A stretch of 64,000 nucleotides of DNA from NCBI GenBank assembly GCA_000004985.1, contig GG738862.1; one strand, 5' to 3'. Each line of letters begins with the position of its first letter. The first letter of the stretch is position 1. Both the position numbers and the translations under genes were made by a program. Of this stretch, positions 3,522 through 57,156 are shown one piece after another. The notes below the pieces were generated by a model, which was not told the DNA's origin, searched no databases, and worked only from the letters and a program-made list of their open reading frames with translations. This DNA comes from Naegleria gruberi. Lineage: Eukaryota.

Positions 3522-3640
3522 AGACTACAGCACCACAGGTTCCCAAGTTGTCTCCAACCTCAGTACTGATGTGGCTCGACGATGCTTAACTTCTCAAATC
3601 GGACGGGATGAGGTGCATTCATCGTGATATGGCCGTAGCC
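3522..3640 (-). rRNA. 5S: 5S ribosomal RNA gene (copy 1)
   Basis: Reverse complement reads GGCTACGGCCATATCACGATGAATGCACCTCATCCCGTCCGATTTGAGAAGTTAAGCATCGTCGAGCCACATCAGTACTGAGGTTGGAGACAACTTGGGAACCTGTGGTGCTGTAGTC followed by a T-run terminator. Identical to the other 5S copies in the window. Confidence 0.9.
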
Positions 3641-4671: not shown

Positions 4672-6892
4672 TCAAAAGGCTAGGGTTCTAATGACACTAT
4701 CTTTATGTTTTGGAGTGTTCTTCCTCAAAAAGTAGTCCTTATCTTGAAAGTATGTTTTAACAATTTTTGCCTTTTGCTTTAAATGAACAAGCTGTGGAGT
4801 AGCATTATTCTCTGAAGGAATAAATAAAAGATCGAGTAAACTAAAAGCATCCATTCTCTTATCCATAGACTTGACCAGTATCTTTTTTTTGATAATGGAA
4901 AGAATGATACTTTCATCATTTGAAAGGTCCACATCTTCCAAATAACCTTCAACAGTCTCTTCATCTTCTAAAAATTCCAACCTCTCCTCATGAATAATTT
5001 CTAACAGAACCATTCCCAATGAATAAATATCGCTCTTTGGGGAAATTAAATTTTTCTCAACTCTCTCAGGAGATCTGTATCCTGCAACATTAAGGGATGT
5101 GTAAAATAGGTTGAGTAGTTTGTAAACTTACCTTCTGAAAAATTCTTTGATGTCAGTGGATTCAAGTTCTTATCTACACATATTCCATCTTCAAGAGAAA
5201 ATTTCGTTGCTATTTCAAAATCTATCAAAAACCAATGCTTATCATACAACACAATATTTTCTGGTTTGATATCATTATGTGTAATTTGGTGTTTTTGTAA
5301 GAAACAGAGCTGAACAAGCAAATCAATGAAAAAAGCCATAATATTAATCTTCTTTCCCTTATTAAAGAACCTAGTCATACATTTACCAGCTAATGAAAGT
5401 GAAAAATTCCCATCAATCATTGGAGCATACAGAGTTAGGAAGTTATATCTTATAGAATCCTCATTAATGTTAATATTTGGTTGGTATTTAATAAAATACT
5501 CAACGCCATTAATTTTCCCCTTTTTGAGAGTTGAGCGGGTTTGGATTGGGTCAAAATTTTTGTCGTATTCTATCAATTGATTGTCTGCATCTAATTTAGG
5601 AAATGAAATTTCATTCTTTTGGTTGGATGACATCATACTTATTTGGCGTTGTGTAGTTAAATATTCGGTAACCTCTTCATTATTTGGATAAATGAGAGCT
5701 GTCATAATTCTAGCAATGAGATGAATTCGATCCATAACAACTTCGTGCTTATAGGATCCAATGAATGAAAGAGTAAAATTTGAAAGAGTTATGGATTTAC
5801 CATTCAAGCTGATTGATGAGCAGTGCAAAGAATACAAATGAGATGCCTGTCTGTCTGTTGTGATACCTAGAACTAATACTTGATTGTGCCATTCCTCAAT
5901 ATCTTTCTTGATAAGCTGCCTCATGGCATGAGAGAGGGCAATCTTCATCTGAGAAATGAGAGCTATAAAGTCCTTGTGGCTGGTGTGACTTTGATAAATA
6001 TCCGGCGAATCTTCTCTGATAACCCTAATGCATTTGTAACTATTTTTAAAAGTAACAATGGTAATATCGTCAGGTCTAAAGTCGGGAATGCTGGCCTGAA
6101 GATTGCCATCCAAACTGCCAACAAAATCTTGAATGCTAGAATTTCTGAACACCTCGAGATTAGTATTTAAAATCAAGTAACTTACGATCCTCCTGAACAG
6201 CCAGAAAAAATAGAGGTAAATCCCATTATTGGAGCAAAATATAATCTGGTAAGTTCCATTTCACTCTCCTCCATTGAATTACGAAATGGAGGGATTATTG
6301 AGCTGAATATTAAATTGTCTATTGTTTTCAATCGAAGATTATAGGATGACACATTATTGGTTGCATCAATTTGATATTCTATATTTTCGTATTTCTTGTC
6401 CAATTTTAGCCCTTCTTTCCTTAACTCATAAATTAGGGTCGAAATATCAGGATTTTGAAGATATCCAAGCAATAATGCTTGAATATTTTCTATTGTTTTC
6501 TTTTTTTCTTCGAATAAAGGATTAGTTTGACTGTTGTTCAATGTGATACCAAAGCCATACAAGGTATATTTGAATATGTTTGCCAGCTTGCTATTGTTGA
6601 TTGAAAAATGAGCAGGAAATTGAACTTTTTTGATATCCTCCAAGTTTGCAATGTTATGGTTATTTACAATATCGTTAAGTTTCCTTTTGGACGGTCTTTT
6701 CAAAGTCTTTTCGTTAATATTGTAAAATTTGGAAACAATATTAAGGGAGACAGCCATTTGCACATTCTCTATGACTTTTTTCTTACAATATTCTTTTTGT
6801 TTGTTAGACTTTTCTGAAGTTTCATTGGAATGTCGGTCATTGATTTTCTTTCGTTTGTTCTCTGCAATTAAGGTGGAAGCTTTTCTTTTCAT
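4672..6892 (-). CDS. protein kinase with N-terminal extension (3 exons, ~709 aa)
   Basis: Model: complement join(6186..6892, 5132..6144, 4672..5081).
- Intron 1 (6145-6185, 41 nt): GTAAGT donor sits at the ORF-track stop of ORF 6182..6937; acceptor gtgttcag; phase 2. It joins in frame to MILNT.../NSSIQDF.
- Intron 2 (5082-5131, 50 nt): gtaagtttac...tgttgcag; phase 1. It joins ...KNFSEG to YRSPERVEKNLISPKSDIYSLGMVLLEI (kinase subdomains VIII-IX).
- Catalytic loop HNDIKPENIVL; DFG appears as DFE; APE as SPE.
- Total 2130 nt = 710 codons.
- The first in-frame ATG at 6892 is assumed; the ORF-track start at 6937 is GTG. Confidence 0.6.
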
Positions 6893-18941: not shown

Positions 18942-19234
18942 TTTTTTTGAACTGGCTTCGGCATTTCAAAGAGATCTTGCCTTTCTTAAAAGAAAAGTTT
19001 CCAGGTGGTGAATGTTGCGGGATCTATTGGAACGTTTCCTAAACCATCCTGTAAACTAGAATCAGAACTTTTCAGAAGTTAATACTTTACAATCTAAATT
19101 CTTCCCTCCAAAATATTGTACAGAGATGTTGTAACCAAAGAATAGATTGCAAATCAGAATGTCTTATTTGGAAGAACCTTGAGATGATTAAATAATAATT
19201 GTTTTTCGCATTGAAAGCAAAATGAGGACAAAAG

Positions 19235-19270
19235 TGGAGTCATAGGGAATCGAACCCTAGACCTTCTGCA

Positions 19271-19301
<31 letters not shown>

Positions 19302-19307
19302 AACCCC
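19235..19307 (-). tRNA. trnA-UGC: tRNA-Ala (anticodon UGC)
   Basis: The minus strand reads GGGGTTATAGCTCAGTTGGTAGAGCGTCTGCTTTGCATGCAGAAGGTCTAGGGTTCGATTCCCTATGACTCCA. The cloverleaf has a 7-bp acceptor stem with G3:U70 (the Ala identity pair). Anticodon loop TT-TGC-AT, T-loop GGTTCGATTCC, no encoded CCA, 73 nt. Confidence 0.85.
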
Positions 19308-35199: not shown

Positions 35200-35318
35200 G
35201 GCTACGGCCATATCACGATGAATGCACCTCATCCCGTCCGATTTGAGAAGTTAAGCATCGTCGAGCCACATCAGTACTGAGGTTGGAGACAACTTGGGAA
35301 CCTGTGGTGCTGTAGTCT
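35200..35318 (+). rRNA. 5S: 5S ribosomal RNA gene (copy 2)
   Basis: GGCTACGGCCATATCACGATGAATGCACC...CTGTGGTGCTGTAGTC followed by TTTTT. Preceded by the conserved block ttgaagagtgaaagattaaggaagtgaat. Confidence 0.9.
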
Positions 35319-46483: not shown

Positions 46484-46523
46484 ATCAATGATGCAAAGAA
46501 TAAATAGTTTAGTTTCGAATATT

Positions 46524-46562
46524 CACTACGAGCCAACGAGCTAAGAAATGTCGTCGAGCTGT
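46524..46562 (+). repeat. left terminal inverted repeat of candidate element
   Basis: CACTACGAGCCAACGAGCTAAGAAATGTCGTCGAGCTGT. The outer 13 bp and inner 13 bp are perfectly inverted-complementary to 50629-50657. Confidence 0.6.
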
Positions 46563-46715
46563 GAAATATTTTCGCAATTATTAAAAAATAAAAATGGTGA
46601 GACCTTTCAATACTTTCATTCTCAATTTAGAGACATGAAAAACAAATTTAGTCATTATCCGCCAGTATAAAAGCTAACAAAACAACATGTGCAACAATTA
46701 AACAACAAAACAAAT

Positions 46716-47357
46716 ATGACCAGGAACAACAACAATAATAAGAGGAAGAGTAGTGATAGTAGTGGAAAACAGAAGAAGAGGAAGATACAAACTGGGGAAT
46801 TACCATCATCAATACCTTTGGATTCAAGAGATGGAGAAGGAGAAGTGGATTTCATTTTGGAATCAGGAGATTTTGAATATAAACCGGAATATGAGGAGTG
46901 GAATCAAGTACCATCGGAAAAGCAATTAGTTTTTAGTGTTATTTGGGGAGTTTTTGCTAAATGTGCAAGATGTAAAATCAATCAACATTTGGATATGAAT
47001 GCTAGTTGTACAATTAATCATGAAACTCTTGGATCATGTGCACATCAAGTATTTTATTTGATGATGAAGGACTCAAAGGGAGAATTTCGTAGATGGTATC
47101 AGGATGTTTGGTGGAATGGTATTAGAAAAAGAAGCAAATGTATTCAATTTATATTCCGAAATTGTTTACCGAATTTTGATAAATATGATGATTGGGGAAT
47201 GGTATTAATATTGCACACCAACAACACATCTCAATTTGGAACACTCAAATGTAGACAACAAATGAATATTACTAGAATGTCAATAACTTGTAATATTGAA
47301 ACAGGAGAGGTTTGGAGTTCTTTTAGATTCAAGAAGTCAATTGAGAAAGTACGATAA
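46716..47357 (+). CDS. Cys/His-rich hypothetical protein (213 aa) inside candidate element
   Basis: ATG at 46716; the ORF-track start at 46689 is GTG. N-terminal KR-rich NLS-like tract. Contains CARCKINQHLDMNASCTINHETLGSCAH. Confidence 0.45.
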   Translation: MTRNNNNNKRKSSDSSGKQKKRKIQTGELPSSIPLDSRDGEGEVDFILESGDFEYKPEYEEWNQVPSEKQLVFSVIWGVFAKCARCKINQHLDMNASCTINHETLGSCAHQVFYLMMKDSKGEFRRWYQDVWWNGIRKRSKCIQFIFRNCLPNFDKYDDWGMVLILHTNNTSQFGTLKCRQQMNITRMSITCNIETGEVWSSFRFKKSIEKVR

Positions 47358-47389
47358 CAACTTGTCAACCAACAATCAACAAATAAAAT

Positions 47390-49123
47390 ATGTCAGCATC
47401 CTTTAAATCTGACGTTCGTAAAATTGCTTTAACAATACCTCCCGAGTTGAACAATGATTCATTTCCTTCCATCCTACTTTTTTGTGTGTGTCAGCTCATG
47501 CTGAAATGTATTACAATAGAAGTACTCGAAAATATTTTGCTAAGTGCTTTTATTAATATTTATTTACCAATGATGACAAACAATAATGAACGCAACAAAC
47601 CTCTTGGCTGGGAAATTATTGATGATGATGATGTTACATCTCAACATAATTCGGAAGCAAGTATTGACATTGTTTCATTGTTAAGACAAGCAAGTGATGA
47701 AGTACAAAATATTGAACAAAGTGAGGATGTAGAGCATTCCCAACAAACAAGAAAACAATCAACAAGCAAGAAACCAAAAGCACCAAAACAGGTGCCAATT
47801 TTATACACTGATATTTTGGATAATTATACTGATTTTTCGTTTTTAAAATATAAATTAACTGGAGATGCAATTATTGAGGATGGAAGAGTTAATAGAACTA
47901 AGAGCAAATCTAAGCCAGTAGCAATTTGTAATATGGATCATTTCGGATTTTCAAAAAAAGATTTGTTTAGAAAATCTTGTAAACATTTCGTTGAATCTAA
48001 GCCCCATCTAAATTTAATATCAGCTAACAATAATTCTATTAAAAGCATCAAACTATTTAATATTAATGAAATGAAACAGAGTAAGGATATAAAATTTAAA
48101 GATAAAGAAGTTCTAGGAAGATTCTTATTTGGAATTGAATTGGCTGGATTAAATCATGGAATTAATGGATTTGAACATTTTATTCATTTGATTGCATATT
48201 TATTTAAGGATGAATTTATTCATGCCATTGGAACATATGATTACAAGGATAAAATTTTAAAAAAAGTAAAAGAATTACCAATTCAGGAACATTTAGAAAG
48301 TCTTAATGAATATATTGAGATGTATGAAAAAAAAACATTTCCAATAATATCTCCACTGAAATATATTGAAGAAGAGCAACATCAGGATTTGGATAGTGAA
48401 GAAGATCAAAATGAAGAACATGAACATTTTAATGAATTTAATACTGGAGTGGTTTCAACAACAAAGAAACATTCAAAGGAAAAACAACAACCACAAAAAG
48501 AAACAAATATTGAAAATGATGATAATGAATGGCATGATATAGATAGCTCAATGGATGACGATGTTGAAGAGGTAGTTAATATTGTTGAACAATCACGTGT
48601 AGATGTAGTCAATAATGAATCAAGTAAATTTACATTTACTAAAAAAATGGTTAGAGATATTTATGGAAAACAAGAATCCAGAATGTCATGTTTGAATTAT
48701 TCTAAATTTTCCAAAATAACTGAATCAGACAACACCAAAGACTCAGTTTTAAGAAAAGCAACAGCTATTTTGAATATACAAACTCTTTTAAAATTTGGAG
48801 TTCAGGTTGATGAAGAAAATTCAATAGTTGTCGCGAGCATGCTCAAGGTGTTGGAAGAATCAATAAGGTACCACATTAATTGGATTAAGGAAGCCGAAAA
48901 AGATGAAACTTTGAGCAAAAAATTGAAAAAAGAGGATTTGGAAATAGATTTAAAAGTATTTTATTTCAAATTAAATCTAGATGAAGCCTCAGGTACTGTT
49001 ACATTCGCTATTCAATTATTGAATGGAAAATCTCATGGAAATCCCGAATCGAGATTAAATGTGACAACACTAGCTGCCTGGCGTGGAGGCGAAGAGAAAA
49101 TGAGATCGAAAGTAGTAATGTAA
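47390..49123 (+). CDS. hypothetical 577-aa protein inside candidate element (possible transposase / accessory; acidic central region)
   Basis: ATG at 47390, 33 nt after the stop of the previous ORF. The stop at 49121-49123 lies 12 nt before the Tet ATG. No DDE triad recognisable by eye. Confidence 0.5.
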   Translation: MSASFKSDVRKIALTIPPELNNDSFPSILLFCVCQLMLKCITIEVLENILLSAFINIYLPMMTNNNERNKPLGWEIIDDDDVTSQHNSEASIDIVSLLRQASDEVQNIEQSEDVEHSQQTRKQSTSKKPKAPKQVPILYTDILDNYTDFSFLKYKLTGDAIIEDGRVNRTKSKSKPVAICNMDHFGFSKKDLFRKSCKHFVESKPHLNLISANNNSIKSIKLFNINEMKQSKDIKFKDKEVLGRFLFGIELAGLNHGINGFEHFIHLIAYLFKDEFIHAIGTYDYKDKILKKVKELPIQEHLESLNEYIEMYEKKTFPIISPLKYIEEEQHQDLDSEEDQNEEHEHFNEFNTGVVSTTKKHSKEKQQPQKETNIENDDNEWHDIDSSMDDDVEEVVNIVEQSRVDVVNNESSKFTFTKKMVRDIYGKQESRMSCLNYSKFSKITESDNTKDSVLRKATAILNIQTLLKFGVQVDEENSIVVASMLKVLEESIRYHINWIKEAEKDETLSKKLKKEDLEIDLKVFYFKLNLDEASGTVTFAIQLLNGKSHGNPESRLNVTTLAAWRGGEEKMRSKVVM

Positions 49124-49135
49124 TATTTTAAATTT

Positions 49136-50526
49136 ATGATTGAGGCTACTAGAGCTAACGGAGTAATTGTTGATGGGAAAACATACAAAGTTGACTATTT
49201 AATGACAACTGATTTATTATCCTTGAAAAATATTAGTAGATTAATGTTTAAAAGAATGTGCCCATATTGTTTGAGTCTTTCAACATTATGTGATAGAAGA
49301 CATGTATTGAGAGCAAAAGAAGAACTTTCATGTATTTTATCTATTCCTCCCTCAAAGATAGTAATTTGTTTCCTCCATTTAAGGGAACGAATCATGGAAA
49401 GACTGTTAATAGATTCAATATTGACAATGAGTAGTACGAGAAAATTTTTGAAGACGTTGAAATCAATTAAGAATTTTCAGAACTTTTCATTGCGTCAACT
49501 TAACACCAAAAAAGGAATATTATATAGATGTTACTTGATAGGAAATATGGTTAAATCATTGTTAAAAAGTCTTATTGTTATCAAGAAATTTATCAATCCA
49601 ATGCAATATGAATTGATGACCAAATTTAAACGAGTAGTGGATTTGTTGAACGTAAAGGAACGAATGGATGATGAACAGTATGAAACTTTTATGAAAGCTC
49701 TCAAAGATATGCAACAATCATATTGCAGATTATATGTTAATGGTCCTAAAAGTTGGTACATGCACATATTGTTTCATCATGTTCCAAGTTTATTGAAAAT
49801 GTACGGCTCCTTAAAGCCATTTGAAACTCAGGGTTTTGAAGGTAAGTAATCATTAACTTTAATATTAATTGTAAACAGGAGCTCACATTGACGATAAAGA
49901 TCTATTGGAAAAAACCTCTCATAATGGAGGAAGAAAATCATATTTGCACTTTATGTTTCCAAACTTTAAAGATATAATGTTAATCCAATTTATTTTACCT
50001 AGATTAAGGAAATTGTTAATTTGTAACGAGTATGGTTTTAAATTTGACTGTAGTAAAAGAGATTCTAAATTGGTAAGGCAATTTCTTGATGAGCCCTATC
50101 CTGATATACTTTGTGAATATTCTCATTTATTGGAAAGAAATGATGATCAAATGTGTGATGACGAATGTTGTCAAAATAATTGATTCACATAGAATTATTA
50201 AAGCTCATAGGGATAATCTTGATGTAGGAGTTAGTATATTGTTTTATTTCGGATCGTATCTTGAAAATGAAGGTTATTTGGAGTTAACTGATAAAAATTG
50301 CAAAATATATTGCAGACCTGGAGATGTAGTGATATTTAAAGGAAATATTTATAAACACAAAGTTAATAATATTTCAACAGGATTTAGGATAGGAATTGTT
50401 TATTTCACACATAAGGGAAACAAGTCAAAACCATACTATGAAACAACGCAACGAGCCTCTTTGAAGCAACACAGAGAGTTGTTTCCTAACGAGAAGCCAA
50501 AGAAAAAGAAGAAGACAAATAAATAA
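49136..50526 (+). CDS. Tet/JBP-family 2-oxoglutarate/Fe(II) dioxygenase (NgTet-like), 3 exons, ~432 aa
   Basis: Model: join(49136..49841, 49879..50022, 50078..50526).
- Intron 1 (49842-49878, 37 nt): GTAAGTaatc...gtaaacag, phase 1.
- Intron 2 ends at the AG at 50076-77. Its donor is GTAACG at 50023 (55 nt); the alternative is GTTTTA at 50035 (43 nt). Both are phase 1 and both keep the total divisible by 3.
- Catalytic motifs: H-R-D (SHRIIKAHRDNLDVGVSILFYFGSY), distal His (GDVVIFKGNIYKHKV) and 2OG-binding Arg (GFRIGIVYFTHKG).
- The C-terminal half is near-colinear with NgTet1 as I recall it (YLELTDKNCK; KPYYE.TQ..SLK.H.E). Confidence 0.65.
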
Positions 50527-50628
50527 ACGAACTTCATTCCTATCAATGTCAAAAATTTATTTGTTGTTTACATTCTAAAGAGAACATCCCTTCCAAAAAA
50601 AATTTACCTTCTACTTGTATTCTAATGT

Positions 50629-50657
50629 ACAGCTCGACGACCGCTTGGCTCGTAGTG
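50629..50657 (+). repeat. right terminal inverted repeat of candidate element
   Basis: ACAGCTCGACGACCGCTTGGCTCGTAGTG. Its reverse complement matches the left end 46524-46562. Confidence 0.6.
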
Positions 50658-50695
50658 TTGTGTTTTGAAAACTTGATCACAATTTGGATAAAAAA

Positions 50696-52678: not shown

Positions 52679-52797
52679 GGCTACGGCCATATCACGATGA
52701 ATGCACCTCATCCCGTCCGATTTGAGAAGTTAAGCATCGTCGAGCCACATCAGTACTGAGGTTGGAGACAACTTGGGAACCTGTGGTGCTGTAGTCT
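52679..52797 (+). rRNA. 5S: 5S ribosomal RNA gene (copy 4)
   Basis: Identical 5S sequence followed by a T6 terminator. Preceded by aattattaattgaagagtgaaagattaaggaattgaat. Confidence 0.9.
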
Positions 52798-57037: not shown

Positions 57038-57156
57038 AGACTACAGCACCACAGGTTCCCAAGTTGTCTCCAACCTCAGTACTGATGTGGCTCGACGATG
57101 CTTAACTTCTCAAATCGGACGGGATGAGGTGCATTCATCGTGATATGGCCGTAGCC
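57038..57156 (-). rRNA. 5S: 5S ribosomal RNA gene (copy 5)
   Basis: Reverse complement is identical to the 5S sequence, followed by a T5 terminator on the minus strand. The upstream conserved block is present but interrupted by a 24-bp partial duplication (gatgaaagattattataaagaat). Confidence 0.9.

Follow-up and report, generated by a model that had tools for sequence, protein, structure and literature searches.

Positions 46524-50657 of a 64,000-nucleotide stretch of Naegleria gruberi DNA (GenBank assembly GCA_000004985.1, contig GG738862.1; the whole 64-kb stretch is referred to here as the window) are likely to be one copy of a cut-and-paste DNA transposon from a heterolobosean branch within the CMC/Transib-RAG1 ('CMCT') clade, which is probably non-autonomous and contains a captured or truncated fragment of a Tet gene. 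An earlier note on this DNA had guessed from its terminus at a CACTA-related transposon bounded by terminal inverted repeats (TIRs), with a Tet dioxygenase that oxidises 5-methylcytosine (5mC) as its cargo. The first part of this proposal is supported by the element's own transposase, which is homologous to RAG1 and Transib, and by a relative whose terminus also lies at CACTAC. The second part is not, as the element holds no more than the final third of a Tet domain, out of frame and absent from the relatives examined. Three of five features of the CMCT clade appear to be present, namely a DDE triad on a predicted RNase H-like fold, the C2C/H4H motifs, and TIRs of the CA..TG type.

Terminal inverted repeats and boundaries of the element

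The features that define the ends of the element are as follows.

46522-46523 and 50658-50659, no strand: candidate 2-bp target-site duplication, TT (read from the sequence; no counterpart in relatives)
46524-46562, no strand: 5' TIR, bipartite, with CACTACGAGCCAA, a 13-nt spacer and GTCGTCGAGCTGT (sequence reading and 13-mer search)
50629-50657, no strand: 3' TIR, bipartite, with the same two modules and a 3-nt spacer (sequence reading and 13-mer search)

The left end reads CACTACGAGCCAA, CGAGCTAAGAAAT and GTCGTCGAGCTGT in succession, and the reverse complement of the right end reads CACTACGAGCCAA, GCG and GTCGTCGAGCTGT, so that the two modules are identical between the ends at 26 of 26 positions and are separated by a spacer of 13 nt at the left end and of 3 nt at the right end. 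The inverted repeats, described before as identical over 13 bp at each end, are thus confirmed. Each 13-mer is found at these two sites only in the window; when up to two mismatches were allowed, shuffling gave an expectation of 0.45 and 0.16 matches for the respective 13-mers. The ends are also GC-rich as had been noted, with a G+C content of 51% and 62% in an element of 4,134 bp that is 30% G+C overall. Both outer termini are CACTAC, or CACTACG...CGTAGTG in full, and inverted repeats with 5'-CA..TG-3' termini, a feature of the CMCT clade, are present here and in the related loci L005 and L006/L007. Furthermore, the rare motif CGAGCY occurs three times in the 5' TIR, and of the 28 occurrences of CGAGC or its complement in the whole window five lie in the repeats.

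The dinucleotide TT adjoins both ends, as had been observed, with a chance match probability of ~0.08 at this base composition. There are no direct repeats of 3, 4 or 5 bp at the flanks of the element (ATT versus TTG; ATATT versus TTGTG), where the left flank ends in GAATATT and the right flank starts with GTGTTTTG. The element lies, as first described, within the intergenic gaps of its neighbours, with its left end 40 bp past the stop codon of the left neighbour gene and its right end 38 bp short of the start codon of the right neighbour, which encodes a DUF4116 protein.

An interrupted transposase gene related to RAG1 and Transib

The earlier note listed three open reading frames (ORFs), of which ORF1 and ORF2 exist as described, while the third (49136-49849) corresponds to the catalytic C-terminal half of a transposase and not to Tet. 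Likewise, the 577-aa and 213-aa ORFs, which had been left as unknowns beside Tet, are the N-terminal part of this transposase and a conserved accessory gene, respectively. The transposase comprises the following.

47390-49123, + strand: N-terminal 577 aa of the transposase (NAEGRDRAFT_66508), with the first catalytic aspartate at 48980-48982 and the TAA at 49121-49123 (identity to XP_002678368.1, alignment)
49124-49841, + strand: transposase continuation, part of which is NAEGRDRAFT_66509 (62-sequence alignment, profile matches, AlphaFold/Foldseek)
49211-49213, + strand: second aspartate (family alignment)
49259-49270, + strand: C(2)C motif (family alignment)
49367-49378, + strand: CxLH motif (family alignment)
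49763-49780, + strand: H(4)H motif (family alignment)
49838-49840, + strand: catalytic glutamate (family alignment)
49842-49878, + strand: 37-nt intron or intron-like insertion, GTAAGT...ACAG (frame and motif restored on removal)
49879-50183, + strand: C-terminal tail of the transposase, with its frame running to TGA at 50181-50183 (alignment to P0001/L001 and Willaertia; IQFILPRLRKLL)

ORF2 is 100% identical to NAEGRDRAFT_66508 (XP_002678368.1), and the first part of ORF3 is the N. gruberi protein NAEGRDRAFT_66509 (XP_002678369.1). The two ORFs share a common frame and are separated by a single TAA, with the 12-bp gap that had been reported. All homologues are continuous across the position of this TAA, including one from a metagenome (P0001 on contig L001; 44% identity) and that of Willaertia magna, and an uninterrupted homologue of 980 aa (P0005, contig L002) spans both ORF2 and ORF3 and is preceded by a homologue of ORF1. 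When 34 long relatives are aligned, VVM*YFKFMIEA, the residues on either side of the stop, fall in ordinary coding columns. Because the frame is common and the homologues are continuous across the TAA, we read ORF2 and ORF3 as one gene of ~900 aa with a premature stop. A 33-nt 'intron' around the TAA was also considered and was rejected, as the homologues are coding there.

Both aspartate motifs, KLNLDEAS in ORF2 and TTDLLS further downstream, are conserved, and the aspartate of KLNLDEAS aligns with an aspartate in at least 30 family members. The C(2)C and H(4)H motifs lie between the second aspartate and the glutamate, and the near-invariant columns in the alignment of 62 sequences are C42, C45, C78, L80, H81, R85, Y208, H210, H215 and E235, with CPYC supplying C42 and C45, and HILFHH supplying H210 and H215. 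The catalytic and zinc residues of the window copy are all intact. The combination of C(2)C/H(4)H with DDE is the signature of the EnSpm/Mirage/Chapaev/Transib/RAG1 group (PMC12730594).

When a profile of the family was compared with the sequences in the PDB, it matched the RAG1 core (E 2.5e-11), Helicoverpa Transib (HzTransib; E 7.3e-10) and amphioxus RAG1L (BbRAGL; E 5.4e-9), with the RAG1 and Transib alignments spanning the second aspartate through to the glutamate. The C..C of the family was placed on ICTLCD of RAG1, the H....H on YLHKTLAHVPE, and the glutamate on the catalytic glutamate. A check of the ORFs against transposase profiles, which the earlier note had proposed, returned no Pfam match when ORF1 and ORF2 were scanned singly, and it is the family profile that finds RAG1/Transib. 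Across the 62 family members Pfam RAG1 matched eight and Transposase_21 one, weakly (E 0.008), and Transposase_21 (Tnp2) was absent from the window transposase at E<=1. An AlphaFold model of the ORF3 part had a pLDDT (predicted local distance difference test score) of 94.9, and in a Foldseek search with this model the top 19 PDB matches were all RAG1, BbRAGL or HzTransib, with a probability of ~1. The long N-terminal region of the transposase (~500 aa) had no detected similarity to anything. On these comparisons the transposase of the element appears closer to RAG1/Transib than to Tnp2, which is new.

Downstream of the glutamate, excision of 37 nt (49842-49878) restores the frame and the family-wide motif QGFEgaH, and the homologues are uninterrupted at this position. 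We read this interval as an intron or intron-like insertion, albeit a short one next to the median intron length of 80 bp in N. lovaniensis (PMC6125883). The tail that follows was aligned with P0001/L001 to residue 325 and with Willaertia to residue 310 of a 326-aa query, and the motif IQFILPRLRKLL within it fits the family consensus.

For this copy to give a full-length transposase, the TAA would have to be read through or to be an error of the assembly. The element copy is probably slightly decayed, and non-autonomous or dead, although it could be mobilised in trans if intact copies exist. The description 'recently mobile' is not supported for a copy whose transposase has a premature stop.

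A conserved partner gene precedes the transposase

46716-47357, + strand: ORF1, conserved accessory protein of the transposon family (homologues in L003 and L002)

ORF1 is intact and encodes 213 aa. Its homologue in W. magna (contig L003; 43% identity, E 2e-49) and the one on the metagenome contig L002 (28% identity, E 6e-16) both lie directly upstream of the transposase. No relatives of ORF1 were found in Pfam or the PDB, including with a three-sequence profile, and an AlphaFold model from the single sequence was unusable (pLDDT 35). Because its homologues are found directly upstream of the transposase in both Willaertia and L002, ORF1 is best read as the conserved second, accessory gene of the transposon family and not as cargo.

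The gap between ORF1 and the transposase is 32 nt in the window (47358-47389), one less than the 33 bp given previously, and 15 nt in L002 (890-904). That the two genes stay so close together in distant relatives suggests that they are co-transcribed or joined by a splice that has escaped recognition. There is no frame-compatible GT..AG in the window, and an intron between ORF1 and ORF2 was rejected for this reason. A TATA-like box, GTATAAAAG, is present within the element at 46666-46674, ~45 bp upstream of the ORF1 ATG, and is a possible promoter carried by the element.

A truncated Tet fragment follows the transposase

50182-50526, + strand: 3' fragment of a Tet/JBP dioxygenase gene (phmmer against the PDB, tblastn with NgTet1)
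50153-50192, + strand: hypothetical 40-nt intron, weakly supported (frame restoration)

Tet-like sequence is located downstream of the mechanical ORF3 and in another frame, within an ORF at 50086-50526 (ATG-initiated at 50089-50526; 145 aa). Using phmmer against the PDB, this ORF aligned with NgTet1 (4LT5) only over residues 219-325 of 327 (E 1e-39), and with residues 158-265 of a shorter construct (5CG8; E 7e-40). The HxD (50206, 50212), H (50356) and R (50386) are present and align with AHRDN, YKHKV and GFRIG of NgTet1, and identity to NgTet1 is 64-66% over ~100 aa. In a tblastn search with an NgTet1 query, whose C-terminal part matched as expected, identity was 65.7% over 99 aa, while the N-terminal 220 residues of this query had no match anywhere in the window. 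The Tet_JBP match of this ORF in Pfam was sub-threshold only. The dioxygenase domain is therefore truncated to the equivalent of NgTet1 219-325: the complete double-stranded beta-helix of a TET/JBP enzyme is not there, as the N-terminal two thirds are absent. The missing part presumably includes the elements that contact DNA and 5mC in the 4LT5 structure and the first strands of the fold.

The sequence just upstream of the Tet piece is transposase tail, by homology to three relatives; the frame of the transposase, with its stop at 50181-50183, is not the one in which the Tet piece is read. Tet was absent from seven relative loci (L001-L006 and L009, the last by its gene table only), and Tet_JBP was absent among the Pfam families listed for the 62 family proteins. 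Because the match to NgTet1 is partial and the relatives examined have no Tet, we read the Tet sequence as a truncated piece that is specific to this copy or subfamily. It is possible that it arose by capture of a fragment of a host Tet gene, or that it is the remnant of a complete cargo after internal deletion.

It could be argued instead that this is a functional Tet-cargo transposon, with an active Tet/JBP dioxygenase, either separate or spliced to the C-terminus of the transposase, that oxidises 5mC against methylation silencing. The presence of the HxD, H and 2-oxoglutarate-binding R, together with the identity to NgTet1, would be in keeping with this, as would the 40-nt GT..AG interval at 50153-50192 (GTGTGA...ATAG), removal of which would fuse the transposase and Tet frames. 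In addition, 5mC of N. gruberi is concentrated on repeats and young transposons (PMC12344493), and CMCT-lineage transposons of fungi repeatedly carry TET/JBP genes (PMC12730594). However, the N-terminal two thirds of the enzyme have no counterpart, with transposase by homology occupying the sequence upstream, and this transposase is itself interrupted by a stop. The 5' splice site of the putative intron is non-consensus, the Tet homology (IDSHR) runs into it in the Tet frame, and no relative examined has a Tet. We consider a functional Tet cargo improbable and a transposase-Tet fusion through the 40-nt intron unlikely; the truncated fragment most likely makes no active dioxygenase.

Relatives of the element

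An exhaustive profile search, with ORF3 exon 1 and P0001 as the query, identified 107 relatives, those with named sources coming from N. gruberi, N. lovaniensis, N. fowleri and W. magna and the remainder being metagenome proteins. They include a second, distant paralogue in N. gruberi, NAEGRDRAFT_82344. When the spliced ORF3 and the Tet fragment served as queries in a word-indexed protein search, neither the NgTet proteins nor P0003, an annotated protein of the window, came back. P0003 is in the collection, and paralogues missing from this search are therefore not evidence of absence. Scans of metagenomes by protein alignment and by TIR pattern gave no match.

The ends of several relatives were examined. 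In L005, the 836-aa transposase gene is enclosed by CACTA-type TIRs, CACTATGGTGGTGGG and CACTATGGTTGTGGG, and no inner module was found in these TIRs. In L006, both modules are present, with CACTACAAACCA, a 21-nt spacer and TGTCTTTCGCT at the 5' end (159-202) and CACTACAAACCA, an 11-nt spacer and TGTCTTTCGCT at the 3' end (6031-6064). L006 and L007, which derive from two samples, are 99.9% identical from exactly CACTAC onward and have different left flanks. This start of similarity at CACTAC confirms a true element terminus, and that relative is present in at least two contexts. L005, L006 and L007 showed no target-site duplication; their contigs may contain chimeric joins at repeats. In Willaertia (L003), CACTACAAAC is present 420 bp upstream of the ORF1 homologue and no right end was recognisable, and a search for TIR pairs in L002, L003, L004 (N. 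lovaniensis) and L009 found no convincing pairs. By their sequence the ends of the window element fit those of the family.

A trivial explanation would be that a chance inverted repeat surrounds ordinary host genes with no transposon involved, which could appeal to the flanking match of only 2 bp and to the lack of a second copy in the window. Against this, two exact inverted 13-mers, each unique to the pair of ends within 64 kb, bracket a RAG1/Transib-type transposase gene and its conserved partner ORF, and there are relatives with the same CACTA-type ends, which leaves a chance repeat with a vanishingly small likelihood.

Lesions were also detected in related copies: an in-frame stop interrupts the Willaertia ORF1 homologue (L003 7742-8305), and in L001 the transposase is frameshifted immediately ahead of the CPYC motif, at about 990-1010. 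Separate lesions in separate copies are, from the sequences, as would be expected of decaying transposon copies. This bears on a further alternative, that of a domesticated or fixed host locus, in which an ancient immobile insertion has ORF1 and transposase-derived proteins that serve the host, and its TIRs are relics. One-member protein clusters with no sign of further copies, an intact ORF1 beside a single transposase lesion, and the neat position of the element within a short intergenic gap would all suit such a locus. However, a premature stop in the catalytic region and an interruption that is not a multiple of three argue against selection for a host function, the 26/26 identity of the TIR modules is unexpected for an old relic, and the Willaertia and L001 copies decay at different positions, as copies of a transposon do. 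We regard domestication as somewhat less probable still than a working Tet cargo, and favour a decaying transposon copy.

Several relatives carry additional genes. The element in L006/L007, with the CACTACAAACCA repeats, contains a complete core histone gene (L006 1528-1914, L007 1622-2008; Pfam Histone, E 7.8e-39), which in L006 is 11 nt upstream of the transposase gene, and two small unknown ORFs are located in the same element. A Ulp1-type protease domain (Peptidase_C48, best E 7e-16) is present in two family members, P0027 (L009 215-4087) and one other, and a UCH domain is also present in two. The Tet piece and the histone gene are hints that this transposon family may repeatedly pick up chromatin-related host genes.

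Asymmetry of the ends

In both the window element and L006 the spacer on the gene-upstream side is exactly 10 bp longer than that at the other end, which corresponds to one helical turn (13 versus 3 in the window, 21 versus 11 in L006). The spacer sequences of the two elements are unrelated, and the identity between their transposases is 25%. With two cases this is a lead only, and it recalls the 12/23 rule of RAG1 and the 12/23 TIRs of Transib; a 12/23 asymmetry is found in recombination signal sequences (RSSs) and in some Transib elements (PMC8355894).

By analogy, the lineage might use helical-phase-asymmetric ends ('3/13', '11/21'), with ORF1 possibly reading the inner module as RAG2 or the nonamer-binding domain does for RAG1, a suggestion that we make tentatively and rate as rather unlikely. 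If it were true, asymmetric synapsis of the 12/23 type would be old in the RAG1/Transib clade and would predate the animals. As an alternative idea, splicing of the transposase to a Tet C-terminal module is less likely.

Proposed mechanism, and points against the transposon reading

If the transposase acts as RAG1 and Transib do, it would bind the ends at their terminal CAC and nick at the CAC border, the element would be released by hairpin formation on the flanking DNA, and it would be inserted elsewhere with a short staggered cut. ORF1, the long N-terminal region of the transposase, or both, may bind the inner module or the CGAGCY motifs.

Several points weigh against our reading of this locus as a decayed transposon copy. 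There is no second copy in the window of the element or of any of its ORFs, and no convincing target-site duplication at the locus, where TT/TT could be due to chance; the relatives are likewise without a clear duplication. P0002 and P0003, the two annotated proteins, are each alone in their 90%-identity cluster; an annotated paralogue of near-identical sequence is therefore lacking, and the element may be present as a single copy. A copy that is very young or still under constraint could likewise show one stop in ~2.7 kb of transposase coding sequence, an intact ORF1 and TIR modules without a mismatch, and the TAA could be a sequencing or assembly error. Finally, the 40-nt GT..AG interval could hypothetically place the Tet fragment in frame as part of a fusion protein.

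Significance

With this reading, NAEGRDRAFT_66508, NAEGRDRAFT_66509 and a Tet piece that has no annotation can be interpreted together, as one mobile element. Naegleria then has at least one Tet-like sequence that is a transposon-borne fragment and not a gene, which matters for counts of NgTet paralogues and for the reported lack of 5-hydroxymethylcytosine in N. gruberi. It is also the first TET/JBP sequence in a CMC-clade transposon outside the fungi in the literature that we searched. The presence of the CMC clade in Naegleria is not new, because CMC-EnSpm repeats, labelled by RepeatMasker, have already been listed for N. lovaniensis (PMC6125883); new are the explicit structure of the Naegleria element, its conserved ORF1, the Tet-derived fragment inside it and its asymmetric ends. 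A heterolobosean RAG1/Transib-like lineage with a conserved partner and asymmetric bipartite ends provides an outgroup, amenable to experiment, for studies of how RSS-like end recognition arose.

Other features of the window

Four dispersed 5S rRNA genes are located in the window, each with an Rfam score of 105.4 bits, and one of them lies 73 bp 3' of the DUF4116 gene on the right flank of the element. A tRNA gene is also present.

3522-3640, - strand: 5S rRNA gene
19234-19307: tRNA-Ala(TGC)
35200-35318, + strand: 5S rRNA gene
52679-52797, + strand: 5S rRNA gene, 3' of the DUF4116 gene
57038-57156, - strand: 5S rRNA gene

Comparison with known systems

The element resembles Transib, RAG1 and ProtoRAG in its transposase core, which is homologous by profile and by predicted fold, and the CAC with which its ends begin is also the start of the RSS heptamer and of the TIRs of Transib and ProtoRAG. 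Its ends are also bipartite, as in RAG1/Transib systems, with a terminal module, a sequence-variable spacer and an inner module, and its end spacers differ by approximately one helical turn, as in the 12/23 arrangement of RSSs and some Transib elements (PMC8355894). However, it is not a member of Transib proper: the 5-bp target-site duplication of Transib is absent (ATATT versus TTGTG), and the terminus, CACTACG, is neither of the CACAATG type nor CACAGTG. Instead of an A-rich nonamer there is a G+C-rich inner module, with spacers of 3/13 in the window and 11/21 in the relative. There is no RAG2-like gene in the element, which has the unrelated 213-aa ORF1 instead, and it further differs from Transib/RAG1 in its heterolobosean protist host and in the ~500-aa N-terminal region of its transposase, which is without detectable similarity.

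With EnSpm/CACTA and the CMC group in general the element shares 5'-CACTA termini, a gene pair of accessory protein and transposase, the C2C/HxxxH motif, and a tendency to capture fragments of host genes. It is not a member of EnSpm proper, as Transposase_21 is absent from the window transposase and there is no 3-bp duplication (ATT versus TTG), and unlike EnSpm/CACTA its ORF1 has no similarity to TnpA or to Transposase_23/24. The possible 2-bp duplication would fit the 2-5 bp range of Mirage/ESTA-type elements (PMC12730594).

The TET-positive DNA transposons of fungi (Iyer et al. 2014; Kojima 2025; PMC12730594) are like this element in that TET/JBP-derived sequence is located within a TIR-bounded element of the CMCT clade, in a host with 5mC on repeats. 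In the fungi TET/JBP genes are well documented in KDZ, Plavaka, EnSpm, ESTA and other transposons (PMC12730594), where they are complete, recurrent and present in many copies, whereas the Naegleria element has a single copy of the C-terminal third, which is out of frame, its host is not a fungus, and related elements have none.

The element also resembles Pack-MULE and Pack-CACTA elements, in that a fragment of a host multigene family (the NgTet paralogues) is located between a transposase gene and a TIR and could be read through or spliced into transcripts of the element. Unlike these elements, which are short non-autonomous shells, the Naegleria element keeps its own nearly intact transposase.

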